Sequence record: MN022785.1
From: Escherichia phage VEc20
DNA: 64,000 nt
Reading direction: 5' to 3' (one strand)
In this document: piece by piece, positions 2,500-26,018 of the stretch
Numbering within the stretch: position 1 is the stretch's first letter
How the letters are laid out: the number at the start of each line of letters is the position of its first letter
Position numbers and translations under genes: made by a program
The notes under the pieces: model-generated
Seen by the model: the letters and a program-made list of their open reading frames with translations, nothing else
Databases searched by the model: none
What the model was told of the DNA's origin: nothing

Positions 2500-2658
2500 A
2501 TATCAAGAACCGTCATTGAAATGCAAAATAAAATTATTGAAATAAACCCATCTGGTGTGCTAAAGAAACCAATCCAGCATGCTCTAGTGAATAGATAAAA
2601 TGCAAGAAAAAGTATCACATATCCAAGAAATATCATTATATCAAACTCCGTATAAAGC

Positions 2659-2678
2659 TAAAGGGCCGAAGCCCTTTA
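2659..2678 (-). terminator. UUCG-tetraloop hairpin at 3' end of a-gt
   Basis: Plus strand aaagggccgaagcccttt; on the minus strand a GC stem with UUCG loop. Confidence 0.5.
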
Positions 2679-3878
2679 TTTTGTAATAATGTCAAACTGT
2701 TCTTTAAAGCAGAAGCTTGAATCTTGATGCTGATACAAAAATTCATATGCTTTTTCTCGCTCACGGTCATAAAGAGCTCGGTCAGATGACAGTTCTTTAA
2801 TACGTTCAAACGTTGATTCCATATCATTTTCATCAAACCAAATGATACCGCTATCATGCGAGGTCAAAGGAGTATTATCAACACGGAATTTTAAATTTTC
2901 GCCAGTAGATTTCCAAAATACCGGAATTGTTCCACATGCACCAAGCTCGAGATGAGTATATTCTAAAGAACGTTGCAGATATTTTTTATCCAACTTACTC
3001 AACTGATAACCAAATCCGGATTTACTCATGCGTTCAAGCATTTCGCTATTTACATAACGGTCAAGAATTTGCGTTGGCAAATTAGGAGCAATTTTAATTT
3101 GGTCTACTTGATGAAGACGATAATACTCGTATGGAATTCCTTTTTCTTTAATAGGAATGAACGCTGGAGAACGTTCCAGACCTTCCATAATAGTACTTAG
3201 TCCTGCAGGTTTAAGATGTTTTTCATGAAAATCAAACATCTGATAAAAACCTTTCCATGTAGTCGTACGACCAATCCAACGGTTGATATTCATGTTAATT
3301 TCAGAAACATCTTTCCAGTAGGTTGACCGAACCTTCGCAATATCCATAGGAGGCTGAAAGTTATATACTGTCGGTGCTTCTTCAATATCATCAAACAGAG
3401 AAACAGTTTCTGGATACCATTCTTTCATCAGAACTTTATTAAAATCACCATTATCAGAATGACTAAAAATAACATCAGCTCGACGAACAGTTTCTTCTAA
3501 TCCCAAATTTCGACGCAAAGAAAGAGAAGAATGGTCATGTTGATAAACTACAACACGAACAGAAGGTTTAATGTTATCAATAATTTTTTTATAGTTATTA
3601 ATAGTGTCTTCTTCAACTGAAGTAGCAGGAACTGAATTGATAATTAGAATATCACAATCATTTACCAGCTTAAGTGTTTTATCGTATTCTTTTGCCAATA
3701 AAACCGGAATTGAAAATGATTTATAATCATGCGCACAGTTACGAGTAAATGATTTATCTTTGGCATAAACCAAAGTTACTTCATGACCATTTTTAATAAA
3801 CCAATCACGTTGCTCAAGTGAGAATTTTGTTACACCACAACCTTCAAGACCTCGAGCCATAAAAATACATACTTTCAT
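2676..3878 (-). CDS. a-gt: DNA alpha-glucosyltransferase
   Basis: 400 aa, matches T4 alpha-gt length and recalled sequence (MKVCIFMARGLEGCGVTKFSLEQRDWFIKNGHEVTLVYAKD...). Confidence 0.9.
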   Translation of the reverse strand: MKVCIFMARGLEGCGVTKFSLEQRDWFIKNGHEVTLVYAKDKSFTRNCAHDYKSFSIPVLLAKEYDKTLKLVNDCDILIINSVPATSVEEDTINNYKKIIDNIKPSVRVVVYQHDHSSLSLRRNLGLEETVRRADVIFSHSDNGDFNKVLMKEWYPETVSLFDDIEEAPTVYNFQPPMDIAKVRSTYWKDVSEINMNINRWIGRTTTWKGFYQMFDFHEKHLKPAGLSTIMEGLERSPAFIPIKEKGIPYEYYRLHQVDQIKIAPNLPTQILDRYVNSEMLERMSKSGFGYQLSKLDKKYLQRSLEYTHLELGACGTIPVFWKSTGENLKFRVDNTPLTSHDSGIIWFDENDMESTFERIKELSSDRALYDREREKAYEFLYQHQDSSFCFKEQFDIITK

Positions 3879-18538: not shown

Positions 18539-19507
18539 TTATTTCAGAAGAGTAACCTCAGCGATTTCTTCCCAACCGTTTTTGTCGGTCATAATAAAGT
18601 CAGCAAGATAAAGAGCAGTACGCAGTGAAACATTACGTAAACGGTTAACATTGACTTTCATCCATGATAATGCTTTATAAGTTTCTTCATCAGAAAGACC
18701 GCGCTTTTGCATCATGTCGGTTGAAAGAATAACATCTTCAACCCTGACCATAATTTCTTCATTAGTGTGAACACCCAAATCTAAATAAACTGAGCGGGAC
18801 ACTAATGCTTGTAAATGTGGAGCAAGTTTAGTACCACGGTCTAATTCGCGGTCAATGTCAACGTTTGTGATAAAAACAATCGTTCCTTTAAATTCAAACT
18901 CACGCTCAATGCCTTTTTCTTCTAAGTAAGAAGATGCGGTGCTCCAGCAGACTTTGCGGGTCTCTCCGGTGTCCAGAGCAGCTTTCAGAAGATTAAGAAT
19001 GTCCATATCAGAGAAAACATCCACATCATCAATCAAAAGGACAGAATTCTCTTCACGATTATTCCAAAGCTGTTCATAAAGACCGATACCGGAGATTTTA
19101 CCGTTAATGCTTTTATATTCAATGTATCCATTATCATTTGCTTTATTCAAAGCTTTATCTAAAGAATACGTTTTACCAATACCCGCCGCACCAGAGATAA
19201 TTAATGAACGAATGTTTCCGTTAATAATACCATTCGTCATCATTCCCATAACATTAAATCTTTTATTAATGCGGGTTTTCATATCTTCATATGATTCTTT
19301 AACTTCTTCAACTTTTACACCATCATATGAAATGTCTGATTTGTAAACCCAAACACCGCGACGCTTACCGTCAATTTCAACAAAAACTTTACCATCTCCT
19401 TGTGCATCCACCGGAGCATTATCTGGGAACCATTCACCTAAGAGCTCAAAAGTTCCAGAGATTTCTTTACCAAAGTAGATACCCTTATTGATAGTTACAG
19501 TTTTCAT
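18539..19507 (-). CDS. P-loop NTPase (AAA-like) of unknown function
   Basis: Walker A GAAGIGKT and Walker B LLIDDVD; start set at MKTVT with GGAG 8 nt upstream. Confidence 0.65.
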   Translation of the reverse strand: MKTVTINKGIYFGKEISGTFELLGEWFPDNAPVDAQGDGKVFVEIDGKRRGVWVYKSDISYDGVKVEEVKESYEDMKTRINKRFNVMGMMTNGIINGNIRSLIISGAAGIGKTYSLDKALNKANDNGYIEYKSINGKISGIGLYEQLWNNREENSVLLIDDVDVFSDMDILNLLKAALDTGETRKVCWSTASSYLEEKGIEREFEFKGTIVFITNVDIDRELDRGTKLAPHLQALVSRSVYLDLGVHTNEEIMVRVEDVILSTDMMQKRGLSDEETYKALSWMKVNVNRLRNVSLRTALYLADFIMTDKNGWEEIAEVTLLK

Positions 19508-19542
19508 TTTATTCTCCAATTTTACATTTGTTTTGATAGGGT

Positions 19543-19576: not shown

Positions 19577-19840
19577 TTATTTTAATGTTTGCCAAATTTT
19601 TACTGCTTCGCGACGAGATACTTCTACAGCTCCAAGTTCTACAGCTTTTTGGCGTCGCCGAGCGTGTAAGTCATAATGTTTAATGCGTTTATCTTGAAAC
19701 CAAGAACGTTTCATTCCTATTGCTTCTGCCATTTCGTGAAGCTCTTCAATATCTCCATCAGTGAACATATGACAATTTTTAGTTGGATGACCGCGAAGTT
19801 TCCATCCATGATTCATTAAAACATCTACGTAAACTGTCAT
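19577..19840 (-). CDS. Hypothetical protein
   Basis: 87-aa ORF (MTVYVDVLMNHGWKLRGH...CHMF...HYDL). Confidence 0.5.
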   Translation of the reverse strand: MTVYVDVLMNHGWKLRGHPTKNCHMFTDGDIEELHEMAEAIGMKRSWFQDKRIKHYDLHARRRQKAVELGAVEVSRREAVKIWQTLK

Positions 19841-20110: not shown

Positions 20111-20611
20111 TTATTCCATTTCTATTATATGCATGCTCTTTTTGCTATCAAAATATATGTTTTTAACTGTTAACTCCGAATTAATTGGCAATAAAAACTC
20201 TCTTTCATAATCCACCATAGAAAGATTATCATAAAGCTTATTAAGCTTATCATCATCAATCTGGCCAGATTCTTCAATTGCGATTAAATTTTCTAAAATT
20301 TCAATCATAGCAGTTGAATAGTCAAAAACGTTTGCATTTTTTAACACTATTAAAACATTAGTCATATAGCGTTCTGCCGCAAATGTTTCAGCTATATGAG
20401 ATTCACTACTAAAGGAAGTTATTCTTTTAAATTTGATTCTCCTATTAACTTCAAACTTATAAGATAGTACTTCCTCTATTGTAAGTCCTCTAAAAAGCAC
20501 GTCTTTAATCTCAAGTTTGTCTTTAATGTAATCATTAACACGCTTATGATTAAAATCATTAATTTTGTTGCCAAGGCATTTCATTAAAATATGCATTGTG
20601 TTTCTCTTCAA
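20111..20611 (-). CDS. Hypothetical protein, cassette flanked by near-identical promoter/stem-loop repeats
   Basis: 166-aa ORF. Confidence 0.55.
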   Translation of the reverse strand: MKRNTMHILMKCLGNKINDFNHKRVNDYIKDKLEIKDVLFRGLTIEEVLSYKFEVNRRIKFKRITSFSSESHIAETFAAERYMTNVLIVLKNANVFDYSTAMIEILENLIAIEESGQIDDDKLNKLYDNLSMVDYEREFLLPINSELTVKNIYFDSKKSMHIIEME

Positions 20612-20723: not shown

Positions 20724-21737
20724 TCATTTATAATAACTTCGGTGGTTTTCAAGATAGACCTTCTCAAGGAAGTCATCCCAGAAACCCATGTCCACTTTTT
20801 GCTGCATACCGTTCTTAGAAGCTTCAGTAGATGCTGCTTCTACTTGATCGACCACATCTTCCAAAAACTCTTGAACGGTTTTAAATGGATGTTTACCCAA
20901 CTTCACGTCGAGAATAAATGGAGCGTCTTGAAGTGGATAAATCAAGTCGCCAGTTTTGTAAATTTCCAATAGTTGGAGTCCACCACGGCAAGCATGACTC
21001 AAAGCTTTCCAGTTAATACCTTCATTGGCTTCGGCCTTACGAGCACGTTCACCATATTCAGCATCTAATTTGTTCAGTGACTGCTTAAGCTCAATAAGAG
21101 AAAGAGTTGTCTGATATTTACGACCCAACACAGTGTAGAACGTTTGTGGACCTGTTTTCTCATGATTATGGAACACCCATTCACAGAATTCATTTTCTGG
21201 AAGACGATGCTTAATATCTTCAACTTTAGTGCGGCGCTGCTTAATAGAACCATCTTCTTGGTAATCAACCCATTGCTCGGGGATTTGATTAACTACTTTC
21301 AATACATCACGTAATGCAGCCAAACGAGAACCCTTAACGCCGTATTTAGAAGCTTGCTTACGGACATATCCTAAATATGATTTCATGTTAGTCGTATAAA
21401 AACGAGAACGATTGTCTTGAATAAACTTCCATACATCAGGCAAATCTGATTTAACCACTAGCTCAGGTGGAGTGTGAAGCATATCCAACGCTACAGTTTC
21501 ACCATCTGCTGCTAATTTAAAGAAATATTTAAGACTGTATAGTTCATGGTCAATATCATCTTTAGTGTTTTTAGATGATGTGTTGTTAGTGTTTTTACTC
21601 ATATGCTCTTTGACATTTCCGATAAGAATATCGCGAGCAGGAGGAACAAAGATTTCTTTAAAATCGACATCAGATTCTGGTGTAGAAGTTCCATAAAGAT
21701 GACTACCAAAATAACTTTTCATTACTGTTTTCATCAT
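20724..21737 (-). CDS. Nucleotidyltransferase-like protein (Pol-beta superfamily motif)
   Basis: 337 aa; N-terminal GSHLYGTSTPESDVDF (Gly-Ser followed by a DxD pair) and a downstream acidic residue (ALDMLH). Confidence 0.6.
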   Translation of the reverse strand: MMKTVMKSYFGSHLYGTSTPESDVDFKEIFVPPARDILIGNVKEHMSKNTNNTSSKNTKDDIDHELYSLKYFFKLAADGETVALDMLHTPPELVVKSDLPDVWKFIQDNRSRFYTTNMKSYLGYVRKQASKYGVKGSRLAALRDVLKVVNQIPEQWVDYQEDGSIKQRRTKVEDIKHRLPENEFCEWVFHNHEKTGPQTFYTVLGRKYQTTLSLIELKQSLNKLDAEYGERARKAEANEGINWKALSHACRGGLQLLEIYKTGDLIYPLQDAPFILDVKLGKHPFKTVQEFLEDVVDQVEAASTEASKNGMQQKVDMGFWDDFLEKVYLENHRSYYK

Positions 21738-22195
21738 TCAGCCTTATATTCAATAACAGGACACACTTTAGCTTTACGAGCTTTTAAAAATTCAACGATA
21801 ATCGATTTCTTGGGTTGAATAGGAGGTAAACCTTTATTTTTCCTATCAATGTTTTCTACGTGTAAAGCATAATCCTTTTTCCATTTATAATCTTTATATT
21901 TTTCACGCAAATGTACAGGAATAACAAATGAACCAATAATAAGTAAAACAAGCAAAATGGCAAGTATAAATGCTGATGGAAGCAAAGTCCATAAACTACC
22001 GAAAATAAGCCATCGTTGTAAGCTTTCTGCACAAATAATTGTTAGCCCTACGAGTATAGCACACCCAAAAATAGAAACGAAAAATGTAGGGATAACAATA
22101 GACCAAAAATATGCGCATAGTGTCTTAGGTCGTTGCCATTCATCGTTAAACAATTTGAATAATTTATAGTGCCAAGAGTTTTCATTAATAATCAT
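21734..22195 (-). CDS. Membrane protein (2-3 predicted TM helices), ATGA-coupled to the nucleotidyltransferase-like gene
   Basis: 153 aa with long hydrophobic stretches. Confidence 0.55.
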   Translation of the reverse strand: MIINENSWHYKLFKLFNDEWQRPKTLCAYFWSIVIPTFFVSIFGCAILVGLTIICAESLQRWLIFGSLWTLLPSAFILAILLVLLIIGSFVIPVHLREKYKDYKWKKDYALHVENIDRKNKGLPPIQPKKSIIVEFLKARKAKVCPVIEYKAE

Positions 22196-22197
22196 AA

Positions 22198-22719
22198 CTA
22201 TCCTTTCATTGAAGGCGTAACAGTTGTTAAATACTTAATCATAGCTTCAGCTTCTGATTTTGATAGTGAAATTTCTCCATTGTTTTGACGAATAGAAATA
22301 AAATCCGGATGACGGTCACCACCAGCTTTTAAAACACACATATAAGTATCAGTTTCATCTTCAATATTTGAAATGATTGAAGCAGTTCCACATGAATGCG
22401 GTTTTTGATAAATCAATACAGCTTTTCTTCCGCCATTTGACTGTTCATAAACTTTTAATACATCAAACAAATCACTTCTTTTATCAATAGCTAAAATGTT
22501 ATTTTCATCTTCAATGTTAAATCCTTCGGATACTTCATAAAGTGTCACCCATAAATCGCCAATATCAATAACAGCGTTCACTTTTCCATGACTTTCAAGA
22601 GCATGACAAATTTTCTTGATTTCGTCATAACTCATTTTAATAATATCATCTCCTTGAATAAGAAAGATGTCATTTTTAAATTCAACACGAATTAAACCAC
22701 TTCCACTTGAAATAAACAT
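22198..22719 (-). CDS. Hypothetical protein, paralog of 22726..23283
   Basis: 173 aa; C-terminal tail SKSEAEAMIKYLTTVTPSM resembles TKDEAIALKTYLDSVIPTM in the neighbour. Confidence 0.55.
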   Translation of the reverse strand: MFISSGSGLIRVEFKNDIFLIQGDDIIKMSYDEIKKICHALESHGKVNAVIDIGDLWVTLYEVSEGFNIEDENNILAIDKRSDLFDVLKVYEQSNGGRKAVLIYQKPHSCGTASIISNIEDETDTYMCVLKAGGDRHPDFISIRQNNGEISLSKSEAEAMIKYLTTVTPSMKG

Positions 22720-22725
22720 ATTTCC

Positions 22726-23283
22726 TCACTTTGAAATCATAGTTGGAATGACAGAATCAAGATAAGTCTTTAGTGCAATAGCTTCGTCTTTGGTAAATGT
22801 GACAATATGTGATCGAAAATCGTCGATTTGGCGAATAGTTAAGACATCTCCCTCTTCATAACATTTTGATACATTTAAAAGAGTTTCATCATTCTGATTG
22901 CAAGAGTTAGTAATAATAGCATTGCAATTTTTGAGCCATTTTAAACTATGTTTTCTTTCATTAGAATAATAAAAATATTTAATCTTAGCTATAAAACTAT
23001 CCCAATGGATAACTGATAAACACATTGACTCACTTTTAATATTAAATCCTGGGCATGAAGAATAAAAATGAATTTTGTGCTCATCATTGATACTTACTAT
23101 TTTATCAGTATAAGGATATTCAATTTGGGTTAAATGAATGATTTCACTAGGCGTAAAATATAGCATATCGTCTTCTTGCGTCAAACGATACATGTTATTT
23201 ACTTTTTCTATAGCCAATTCACCAAAAAGCGGACTAACTTCTAATACTAATCGTTTCATATTGATTCTCTTCGACTCACTCAC
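22726..23283 (-). CDS. Hypothetical protein, paralog of 22198..22719
   Basis: 185-aa ORF. Confidence 0.55.
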   Translation of the reverse strand: MSESKRINMKRLVLEVSPLFGELAIEKVNNMYRLTQEDDMLYFTPSEIIHLTQIEYPYTDKIVSINDEHKIHFYSSCPGFNIKSESMCLSVIHWDSFIAKIKYFYYSNERKHSLKWLKNCNAIITNSCNQNDETLLNVSKCYEEGDVLTIRQIDDFRSHIVTFTKDEAIALKTYLDSVIPTMISK

Positions 23284-23418
23284 AATTACATACTCCTTTG
23301 AATAATATCAATAATGTTGTTCACCAGATTATAAGTAAACATTGGGTAATTATATTGAATCATTACATACACAACAAACAAAACTTTCATTCTCTTCTCC
23401 TTGACAGTTGACAAGATT

Positions 23419-23448
23419 ACTATACCATAACCTTGCCAACTTGTAAAC
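23419..23448 (-). promoter_or_regulatory. Early promoter-like element
   Basis: Minus strand TTTACA, 17 nt, TATAGT. Confidence 0.45.
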
Positions 23449-23450
23449 CG

Positions 23451-23624
23451 TTAAATGTTGTTTTCAATAAAATTCTGAAGCTTTGTGTGAGCATCAACCA
23501 TGATTTTCATTTCTTCTTTGGCGAAAGCTGTACCTCTTTCCCGAGAAGAACACTCATAGTCAGAAACTGCATTAGCATATTCTTCAATTAGTTTCATTAA
23601 AAACATCTGCTTTTCAGTTTTCAT
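23451..23624 (-). CDS. Small ORF beginning MKTEKQ
   Basis: Hand-translated 57 aa (MKTEKQMFLMKLIEEYANAV...); shares its N-terminus with 23811..24014. Confidence 0.3.
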   Translation of the reverse strand: MKTEKQMFLMKLIEEYANAVSDYECSSRERGTAFAKEEMKIMVDAHTKLQNFIENNI

Positions 23625-23808
23625 TGTTCCACCTAATCATTTCAAGATATTGAACTAACTTAGCTTTAGATTTATCCAAATCCTTTTTAGCTGCTTCTAT
23701 ACCATCGTATGAATATCCTTCACAATGCTCAACTGCTAATTGATATGAATCTATTTCAATATCACGTGCTAATTTAATGATTTTTTCAAACTGTTCGCGT
23801 GTTAGCAT
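23614..23808 (-). CDS. Small hypothetical protein
   Basis: 64-aa ORF. Confidence 0.45.
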   Translation of the reverse strand: MLTREQFEKIIKLARDIEIDSYQLAVEHCEGYSYDGIEAAKKDLDKSKAKLVQYLEMIRWNNEN

Positions 23809-23810
23809 AC

Positions 23811-24014
23811 TTACACTCTCGTATTATGATCGATAATTTCATCAAGAAACATATCTAACGCTTCTATAGCATTATCCACTTTAGTTTCAAAGTCTTTAAT
23901 GCCTTTATTCGAAATACCCGATGAATACCAAGCAAAGTCAATCAGCTCTTCATCTGCTTTGCGAATTGAAGCCACTAATTCCTTAATTTTATCCGCTTGC
24001 TTTTCAGTTTTCAT
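23811..24014 (-). CDS. Small hypothetical protein beginning MKTEKQ
   Basis: ORF 23811..24050 with start set at the internal Met. Confidence 0.45.
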   Translation of the reverse strand: MKTEKQADKIKELVASIRKADEELIDFAWYSSGISNKGIKDFETKVDNAIEALDMFLDEIIDHNTRV

Positions 24015-25832: not shown

Positions 25833-26018
25833 TTAAAGCGTATTCACATAAGCTATTAATTCATTTTCTTTCTTATCAAACCGATCAGCAAATTCTTCCT
25901 GCTGTTCGGGAGATAACGGGCCGTATTCATCATAAAAGGTGTTTGCTTCTGTATGCTCATCTAGAAGTTCATGGATAAGCTCAAATAATTTATCTTTTTG
26001 TTCTTTACTCAGACTCAT
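25833..26018 (-). CDS. Small acidic hypothetical protein
   Basis: 61-aa ORF. Confidence 0.45.
   Translation of the reverse strand: MSLSKEQKDKLFELIHELLDEHTEANTFYDEYGPLSPEQQEEFADRFDKKENELIAYVNTL

Follow-up and report, generated by a model that had tools for sequence, protein, structure and literature searches.

The closest described counterpart of the gene pair analysed here is mobD.1 (y05I) of phage T4. Its product consists of two Pfam domains, T4_y05I_N (PF24449) and T4_y05I_C (PF24448), and belongs to PHROG 1502. The literature searched for mobD.1, y05I, mobD and nrdC.11 contained neither a functional study nor an experiment on any member of the family.

At the level of predicted fold, the closest described systems are found among PUR, Whirly and PC4-like proteins. 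Janowski and Niessing (2020) divided the PC4-like proteins into type I, with two repeats joined by a linker, and type II, with a single repeat that homodimerises. According to published work a single repeat is unlikely to fold by itself, and paired repeats swap helices (PMC7549692). Pur-alpha is the sole known protein that combines an intramolecular two-repeat domain with a third, dimerising repeat; a heterodimer of Pur-alpha and Pur-beta via repeat III has also been suggested (PMC7549692). The Whirly proteins (PBF-2 p24, StWhy2) and MRP1/MRP2 of trypanosomes are nucleic-acid-binding tetramers and lack a third repeat. MRP1 and MRP2 form a diverged paralog pair, 18% identical, and co-assemble (PMC7549692; PMC11077065). 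ChmC of the chimalliviruses is an essential, tetrameric protein that binds RNA via clusters of lysine and arginine residues.

The DNA analysed here (referred to as the window) is a stretch of 64,000 nucleotides from Escherichia phage VEc20 that carries two adjacent genes of the MobD.1 family. Like MRP1 and MRP2, their products are diverged paralogs. Unlike Whirly proteins and MRP1/MRP2, they are predicted to contain a third repeat, and in contrast to ChmC the family is dispensable and has no conserved lysine and arginine clusters.

Genomic context and transcription

The 2-kb region around the pair is 97–98% identical to many genomes of the genus Tequatrovirus (T4-like phages) and matches 505 phage records; we assign the window to a Tequatrovirus. 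All genes of the region are carried by the minus strand, in the order tk, rI.1, rI, rI.-1, mobD.5, mobD.4, mobD.3, mobD.2a and mobD.2, followed by the 185-aa ORF, the 173-aa ORF, the gene of a 153-aa membrane protein and nrdC.11. An earlier note on this DNA had described the 185-aa and 173-aa proteins as neighbours, and both ORFs were found as noted there. For the coordinates of the individual features see Table 1.

Table 1. Features of the MobD.1 locus in the window (C-terminal domains and tail motifs as predicted).
Feature	Position	Strand	Basis
Predicted sigma-70-type early promoter TTTACA-17-TATAGT, extended TG, upstream of mobD.2	23419..23447	-	promoter scan
mobD.2, 34-aa ORF, first in the transcription unit	23286..23390	-	sequence; RB32 and T4 annotations
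MobD.1 ortholog, 185 aa, GTG start	22726..23283	-	identity to T4 MobD.1, synteny, Pfam, PHROG 1502
MobD.1 C-terminal domain, residues 112-182, probable third repeat, strands then helix	22738..22950	-	AF2, hhalign, Pfam T4_y05I_C
MobD.1 tail motif KDEAIALKTYLDSVIPTM, amphipathic helix of repeat 3	22738..22791	-	predicted helix, residues 165-178
Intergenic Shine-Dalgarno and first six codons of the paralog (MFISSG), kept in T4	22701..22725	-	T4 alignment
MobD.1 paralog, 173 aa, ATG start, equivalent to RB32ORF097c	22198..22719	-	BLASTP, Pfam domains
Paralog N-terminal domain, residues 1-95, two repeats	22435..22719	-	
Paralog C-terminal domain, residues 100-171, probable third repeat	22207..22422	-	AF2 strands and helix 154-167; Pfam T4_y05I_C
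Paralog tail motif SKSEAEAMIKYLTTVTPSM, end of the C-terminal domain	22207..22263	-	
Membrane protein, 153 aa, directly downstream of the paralog	21734..22195	-	PHROG 944

The genes are closely packed. The stop codon of mobD.2 lies 2 nt ahead of the GTG of MobD.1, and the spacing among mobD.2, MobD.1, the paralog and the membrane-protein gene is 2–6 nt, each gene having a Shine-Dalgarno sequence of its own. An alternative ATG of the 185-aa ORF at position 23259 would yield a protein of 177 aa, which corresponds to the annotation of MobD.1 in RB32. The same record annotates the membrane-protein gene as "replaces mobD". A y05I-family gene followed by a membrane-annotated or unannotated gene is also present in RB69, fHe-Yen9-01 and JS10.

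The 185-aa and 173-aa ORFs share the same reading frame and are separated by TGA GGA AAT alone (22720-22728, minus strand). Hypothetical read-through of this TGA would give a 361-aa fusion of both paralogs with six repeats.

The promoter is located 22 nt upstream of the ATG of mobD.2 and its hexamers are conserved in T4. Its position matches that of the T4 early promoter Pe57954 (PMC6024815). We predict that it serves mobD.2, MobD.1 and the paralog and that the three genes are transcribed early by the host RNA polymerase.

Homology of the two proteins

The two proteins had been proposed to arise by duplication and divergence, on the basis of their similar tails. This similarity was borne out by our analysis: residues 153–171 of the 173-aa protein and 164–182 of the 185-aa protein share 9 of 19 positions (z=6.9, 2000 shuffles). 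It is, however, only the end of a significant full-length alignment, which reaches well beyond the last 20 residues. BLASTP aligned residues 3–171 of the shorter protein with residues 16–182 of the longer one at 27% identity over 176 aa (E=2e-8). Smith-Waterman alignment gave a full-length z of 11.8 relative to shuffled sequences. With the last 25 residues cut from both proteins z was still 6.7, a score reached by none of 2000 shuffles, and the N-terminal domains alone gave z=6.5 (1 of 2000 shuffles). Based on these shuffle tests a chance similarity of the pair was rejected.

Both proteins match PHROG 1502 (function unknown) and have an identical two-domain Pfam architecture. T4_y05I_N was matched with 133.1 bits by the 185-aa and with 118.5 bits by the 173-aa protein (curated gathering threshold 24.9 bits); for T4_y05I_C the scores were 76 and 82.7 bits, respectively (threshold 27 bits). 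The duplication and divergence proposed in the earlier note are thus supported by homology over the entire length. No third member of the family is encoded within the 64,000-nt window.

The 185-aa protein is 86–87.5% identical to T4 MobD.1 and its gene occupies the equal genomic position, downstream of mobD.2 and of the conserved promoter, in DNA that is colinear with T4 at 90.6% identity. RB32 names this gene mobD.1. All of this identifies the 185-aa ORF as the ortholog of T4 MobD.1. The 173-aa protein, in contrast, is only 26–30% identical to the MobD.1 proteins of Tequatro-, Mosig- and Dhakavirus, and its clade, which is absent from T4, lies outside all of these orthologs. We assign it as a paralog rather than an ortholog of MobD.1. 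The relationship itself is not new, as the GenBank note for RB32ORF097c already reads "similar to mobD.1".

Family distribution and the stand-alone C-terminal domain

When 1.84 billion representative proteins were searched with a profile, only 28 relatives were returned at E≤0.001. All full-length relatives whose source could be traced come from T4-like phages, and the MobD.1 family (Pfam T4_y05I) appears to be small and restricted to the T4-like phages that infect enterobacteria. At a level of at least 90% identity the paralog is present in 433 phage records; proteins of the MobD.1 type were found in 728. These comparisons rest on GenBank phage records, and a scan of IMG/VR gave five loci.

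About 12 of the 28 relatives are proteins of 65–87 aa that correspond to the C-terminal domain alone and contain the same tail motif, with the consensus FTK.EA.AL..YLNSVIPTM. No other stretch of the family is as well conserved as this motif, the stand-alone proteins included. The existence of such proteins suggests that the "tail motif" is the signature of an autonomous domain. Their genes are syntenic, located between rI and nrdC.11, in Tegunavirus, Moonvirus and Jiaodavirus. Citrobacter phage Moon carries two adjoining, overlapping single-repeat genes of 78 and 76 aa (positions 2501-2737 and 2727-2957 of the locus excerpt), whose products are themselves paralogs (match to one another at E=1e-8) and share the tail motif. 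This would be a second and independent-looking tandem pair of the repeat module.

Small ORFs of about 60–90 aa just upstream of the y05I-family gene weakly match the repeat profiles (E about 0.002–0.02) in RB69 (1958-2164), JS10 (1808-2005), KpV477 (2314-2505) and a contig from IMG/VR (2395-2661; all positions refer to the locus excerpts). These matches may reflect single repeats that have diverged further, or noise.

Locus dynamics in T4 and other phages

Colinearity between T4 and the window extends across MobD.1 and a further 25 nt past its stop codon, up to position 22701; homology begins again at 21738, next to the start of nrdC.11. T4 has thereby kept the paralog's Shine-Dalgarno sequence and its first six codons (locus excerpt 3532-3556) just before the mobD homing-endonuclease cassette, which stands in place of positions 22700-21739 of the window, that is, of the paralog and the membrane-protein gene. 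This arrangement points to a T4 ancestor in which the paralog was still present, until the mobD cassette displaced it along with the membrane-protein gene. RB69 and JS10 have no paralog at this point; there, MobD.1 is directly followed by a gene of 150–157 aa, annotated as a membrane protein in RB69.

Phages of the MLF4 type carry a MobD.1 allele that is 47% identical to that of the window and closest to that of RB69, together with an extra ORF of 61 aa. This allele is a mosaic replacement of positions 23280-22850 of the window (MLF4 excerpt 1823-2552) between flanks of 97–100% identity, and one of the junctions lies inside the C-terminal domain. A hybrid gene of 179 aa, composed of the N-terminus of MobD.1 and the C-terminus of the paralog, is intact on the six contigs inspected, in line with an autonomous repeat 3, and looks like a product of recombination between the tandem paralogs. 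On the three metagenomic contigs compared it is the sole family member at the locus (at positions 2501-3040 in one of them), directly followed by a 157-aa gene.

Given the mosaic allele and the hybrid gene, the locus does recombine, and the similar tails could in principle stem from a recent recombination or gene-conversion event between neighbours instead of reflecting a shared function. The DNA of the tails contradicts this. Only 30 of 57 nucleotides are identical between the two genes of the window, and at the nine identical residues the codons are the same in five cases and different in four. The motif is also conserved in the distant stand-alone proteins of other genera. We consider recent conversion of the tails scarcely credible and rejected it on the codon and nucleotide comparison.

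Selection and dispensability

Pairwise dN/dS values were between 0.05 and 0.18 for both genes wherever dS exceeded 0.1, which points to purifying selection on both. This in turn suggests two functional genes that diverged long ago or, alternatively, a second copy that was acquired from a distant relative; the position of the 173-aa clade is in line with either history.

T4 remains viable when the region from nrdC.11 to mobD.3 is deleted (PMC9825161). In T2 the two ends of MobD.1 are in frame and its middle is out of frame, and the same holds for the paralog (locus excerpt 1440-2519). Each of the two T2 genes appears to contain two frameshifts, so that T2 appears to have lost both. Split versions of family genes were observed in several other isolates (ECO4, fPS-90, RB14). 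Both genes are dispensable in the laboratory, yet kept under purifying selection in nature.

The frameshifts in T2, the split versions and the loss of the paralog from T4 might also be read as signs that one of the copies is a redundant, decaying duplicate without a function of its own. Intact ORFs in hundreds of isolates, among them the 433 records of the paralog, argue against such a decay, as do the dN/dS values of both genes. An identity of 27% furthermore makes simple redundancy unlikely. Decay of one copy is in our judgement very improbable and was rejected because of the dN/dS values.

Predicted structure and repeat architecture

Structure prediction had been named as a check in the earlier note; AF2 gave confident N-terminal domains for both proteins (pLDDT about 85–95). 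Each comprises two β-β-β-β-α units, and the type I topology of PC4-like proteins, with two linker-joined repeats in one chain, is present in both models. The C-terminal domains were predicted with low confidence as monomers, from an alignment that lacked the stand-alone C-domain proteins (pLDDT about 46–61 for MobD.1 and 48–70 for the paralog). They consist of strands followed by the tail helix.

A profile-profile alignment (hhalign) of repeat 1 with the C-terminal repeat superimposed the last two strands and the helix at a probability of 91% (E=1e-6). This makes a third repeat of the same type the most likely reading of the C-terminal domain, with a topology derived from secondary-structure prediction and this one profile alignment. 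It may belong to the homodimerising type II of PC4-like proteins. The match to known type II members (Borrelia Pur-alpha, PC4, the PC4-like protein of phage T5 and YdbC) is weak and at the fold level only, and the model of the C-terminal domain is of low confidence.

On these models both proteins are predicted to adopt a PUR/Whirly fold like that of the nucleic-acid-binding Pur-alpha (PDB-entries 3k44, 5fgo and 8chw). The likeness is one of predicted fold: the phage proteins have no detectable sequence similarity to Pur-alpha, they are acidic, and they lack conserved basic residues. At E≤1 Pfam gave no PUR, Whirly or PC4 match for either protein, and searches of the PDB sequences with single sequences and with the family profile yielded no match.

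The low pLDDT of repeat 3 in the monomer fits the published folding limit of a lone repeat and the dimerisation of Pur-alpha repeat III (PMC7549692). Given the layout, which on paper resembles that of Pur-alpha, the tail helix would lie at the centre of a dimer interface. Along this helix runs a hydrophobic stripe (A168, L/M171, Y174, L175, V178, P180 and M182) that is conserved between the paralogs, which is compatible with heterodimers of MobD.1 and the paralog. Such a heterodimer would not be obligatory, since T4 works with MobD.1 alone.

Charge and possible ligands

All nine full-length members are acidic, with pI values of 4.2–5.9 and net charges from -3 to -22. Among eleven diverse full-length members, ten of the conserved charged columns are acidic and only one is basic (K165). 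The uniform acidity and the acidic conserved positions favour a basic protein partner over direct binding of nucleic acids. Many T4 proteins are acidic, DNA binders included, and overall acidity is compatible with a local basic patch. Related folds that bind proteins occur among the fold matches, namely SsgA-like proteins, T7SS chaperones and CdiI immunity proteins; the phage proteins have no sequence relationship to SsgA/SsgB-like proteins, the DUF4176 chaperones of the T7SS or the CdiI proteins, which belong to other biological contexts. We slightly prefer a protein as the partner, which may be a basic one that itself binds nucleic acids, to a nucleic-acid ligand.

The best structural neighbours, however, all bind single-stranded nucleic acids, and the two proteins could be classical ssDNA- or RNA-binding regulators like Pur-alpha, Whirly, MRP1/MRP2 and ChmC. 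They would then bind transcripts of the phage or the host, or unwound DNA, early in infection, and the paralogs would have different targets. ChmC provides a phage precedent for a Whirly/PUR fold that binds RNA (PMC11077065), and the PC4-like protein of phage T5 is among the fold matches (PMC7549692). The Pfam label of the family reads "putative transcription factor", and nrdC.11, located nearby, has a match to the RlaP nucleotidyltransferases ("RNA repair pathway"). A family with pI values this low and net charges down to -22 speaks against this function. So do the conserved columns, with K165 as the sole basic one, as binding of RNA by ChmC needs K/R clusters (PMC11077065), and the missing match to PUR, Whirly or PC4 at the sequence level. 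Overall, we regard direct binding of nucleic acids as somewhat unlikely.

Proposed role of the pair

Based on the sequence comparisons and the models we propose the following explanation. Both genes would be transcribed from an early promoter by the host RNA polymerase. In each of the products repeats 1 and 2 would form an intramolecular domain, and repeat 3, with the helix of the tail motif, would be an autonomous single-repeat module. By analogy to repeat III of Pur-alpha and to PC4-like proteins, this module would have to pair with a second copy, yielding homodimers and possibly heterodimers of MobD.1 and the paralog. The dimeric factor would then bind a basic protein partner, for example a nucleic-acid-binding protein of the host. 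MobD.1 and its neighbour would thus be anciently diverged paralogs of one family acting as dimeric, protein-binding early accessory factors. Taken as a whole, this is the best explanation we can offer, and we put it forward tentatively.

An early promoter, purifying selection and dispensability in the laboratory together make up the usual profile of accessory genes for host takeover or anti-defence. A search for defence and anti-defence families gave no match in PADLOC or NCBIfam at E≤1. The earlier note had called the function unknown. This can be narrowed down to a predicted PUR/Whirly fold in which the tail is the helix of the third repeat. The analysis shows the homology, the domain architecture, the predicted fold, the conserved promoter, selection and dispensability, whereas dimerisation via repeat 3, the type of ligand and the role in infection are inferred.

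A more far-reaching version of this explanation can be formulated. The pair would represent the first Pur-alpha-type architecture outside eukaryotes, with homo- and heterodimers formed via the tail helix. A conserved acidic face would, in place of nucleic-acid binding, sequester a nucleic-acid-binding or defence protein of the host early in infection, so that a fold for binding nucleic acids would have been turned into a decoy. We consider this version doubtful. If it were true, one of the many unknown early genes of T4 would gain a function, and an architecture thought to be unique to eukaryotic Pur-alpha would be extended beyond the eukaryotes.

The finding as such is ordinary and modest: the genes occur in hundreds of T4-like phages, they fall into named Pfam families, and their paralogy is stated in a GenBank note. 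New is the model-based reading of an uncharacterised early T4 gene as a Pur-alpha-like protein of three repeats, in which the shared tail supplies the helix of a repeat that probably mediates dimerisation. The displacement of the paralog and the membrane-protein gene by the homing-endonuclease cassette in T4 adds a small evolutionary point.

Neighbouring genes

Another small family of tandem paralogs is found in the same early region. Pfam DUF7438 is matched by mobD.2a (23451-23624), mobD.3 (23614-23808) and mobD.4 (23811-24014), and by a fourth gene near tk (25833-26018), all on the minus strand.

Between nrdC.11 and nrdC.10 the window contains about 1.1 kb that are extra compared to T4, RB32 and SHFML-26. 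This segment encodes a DUF4031 protein of 87 aa (19577-19840) and a 166-aa ORF (20111-20611), both on the minus strand. The latter had no match in the local copy of Pfam; a metagenomic gene product that shares 98% identity with it carries a precomputed match to Pfam Mod_ADP_RT (ADP-ribosyltransferase). Of the two flanking genes, nrdC.11 with its RlaP match extends over positions 20724-21737, and nrdC.10 (18539-19519, likewise on the minus strand) weakly resembles AAA and STAND NTPase families, with scores below threshold.
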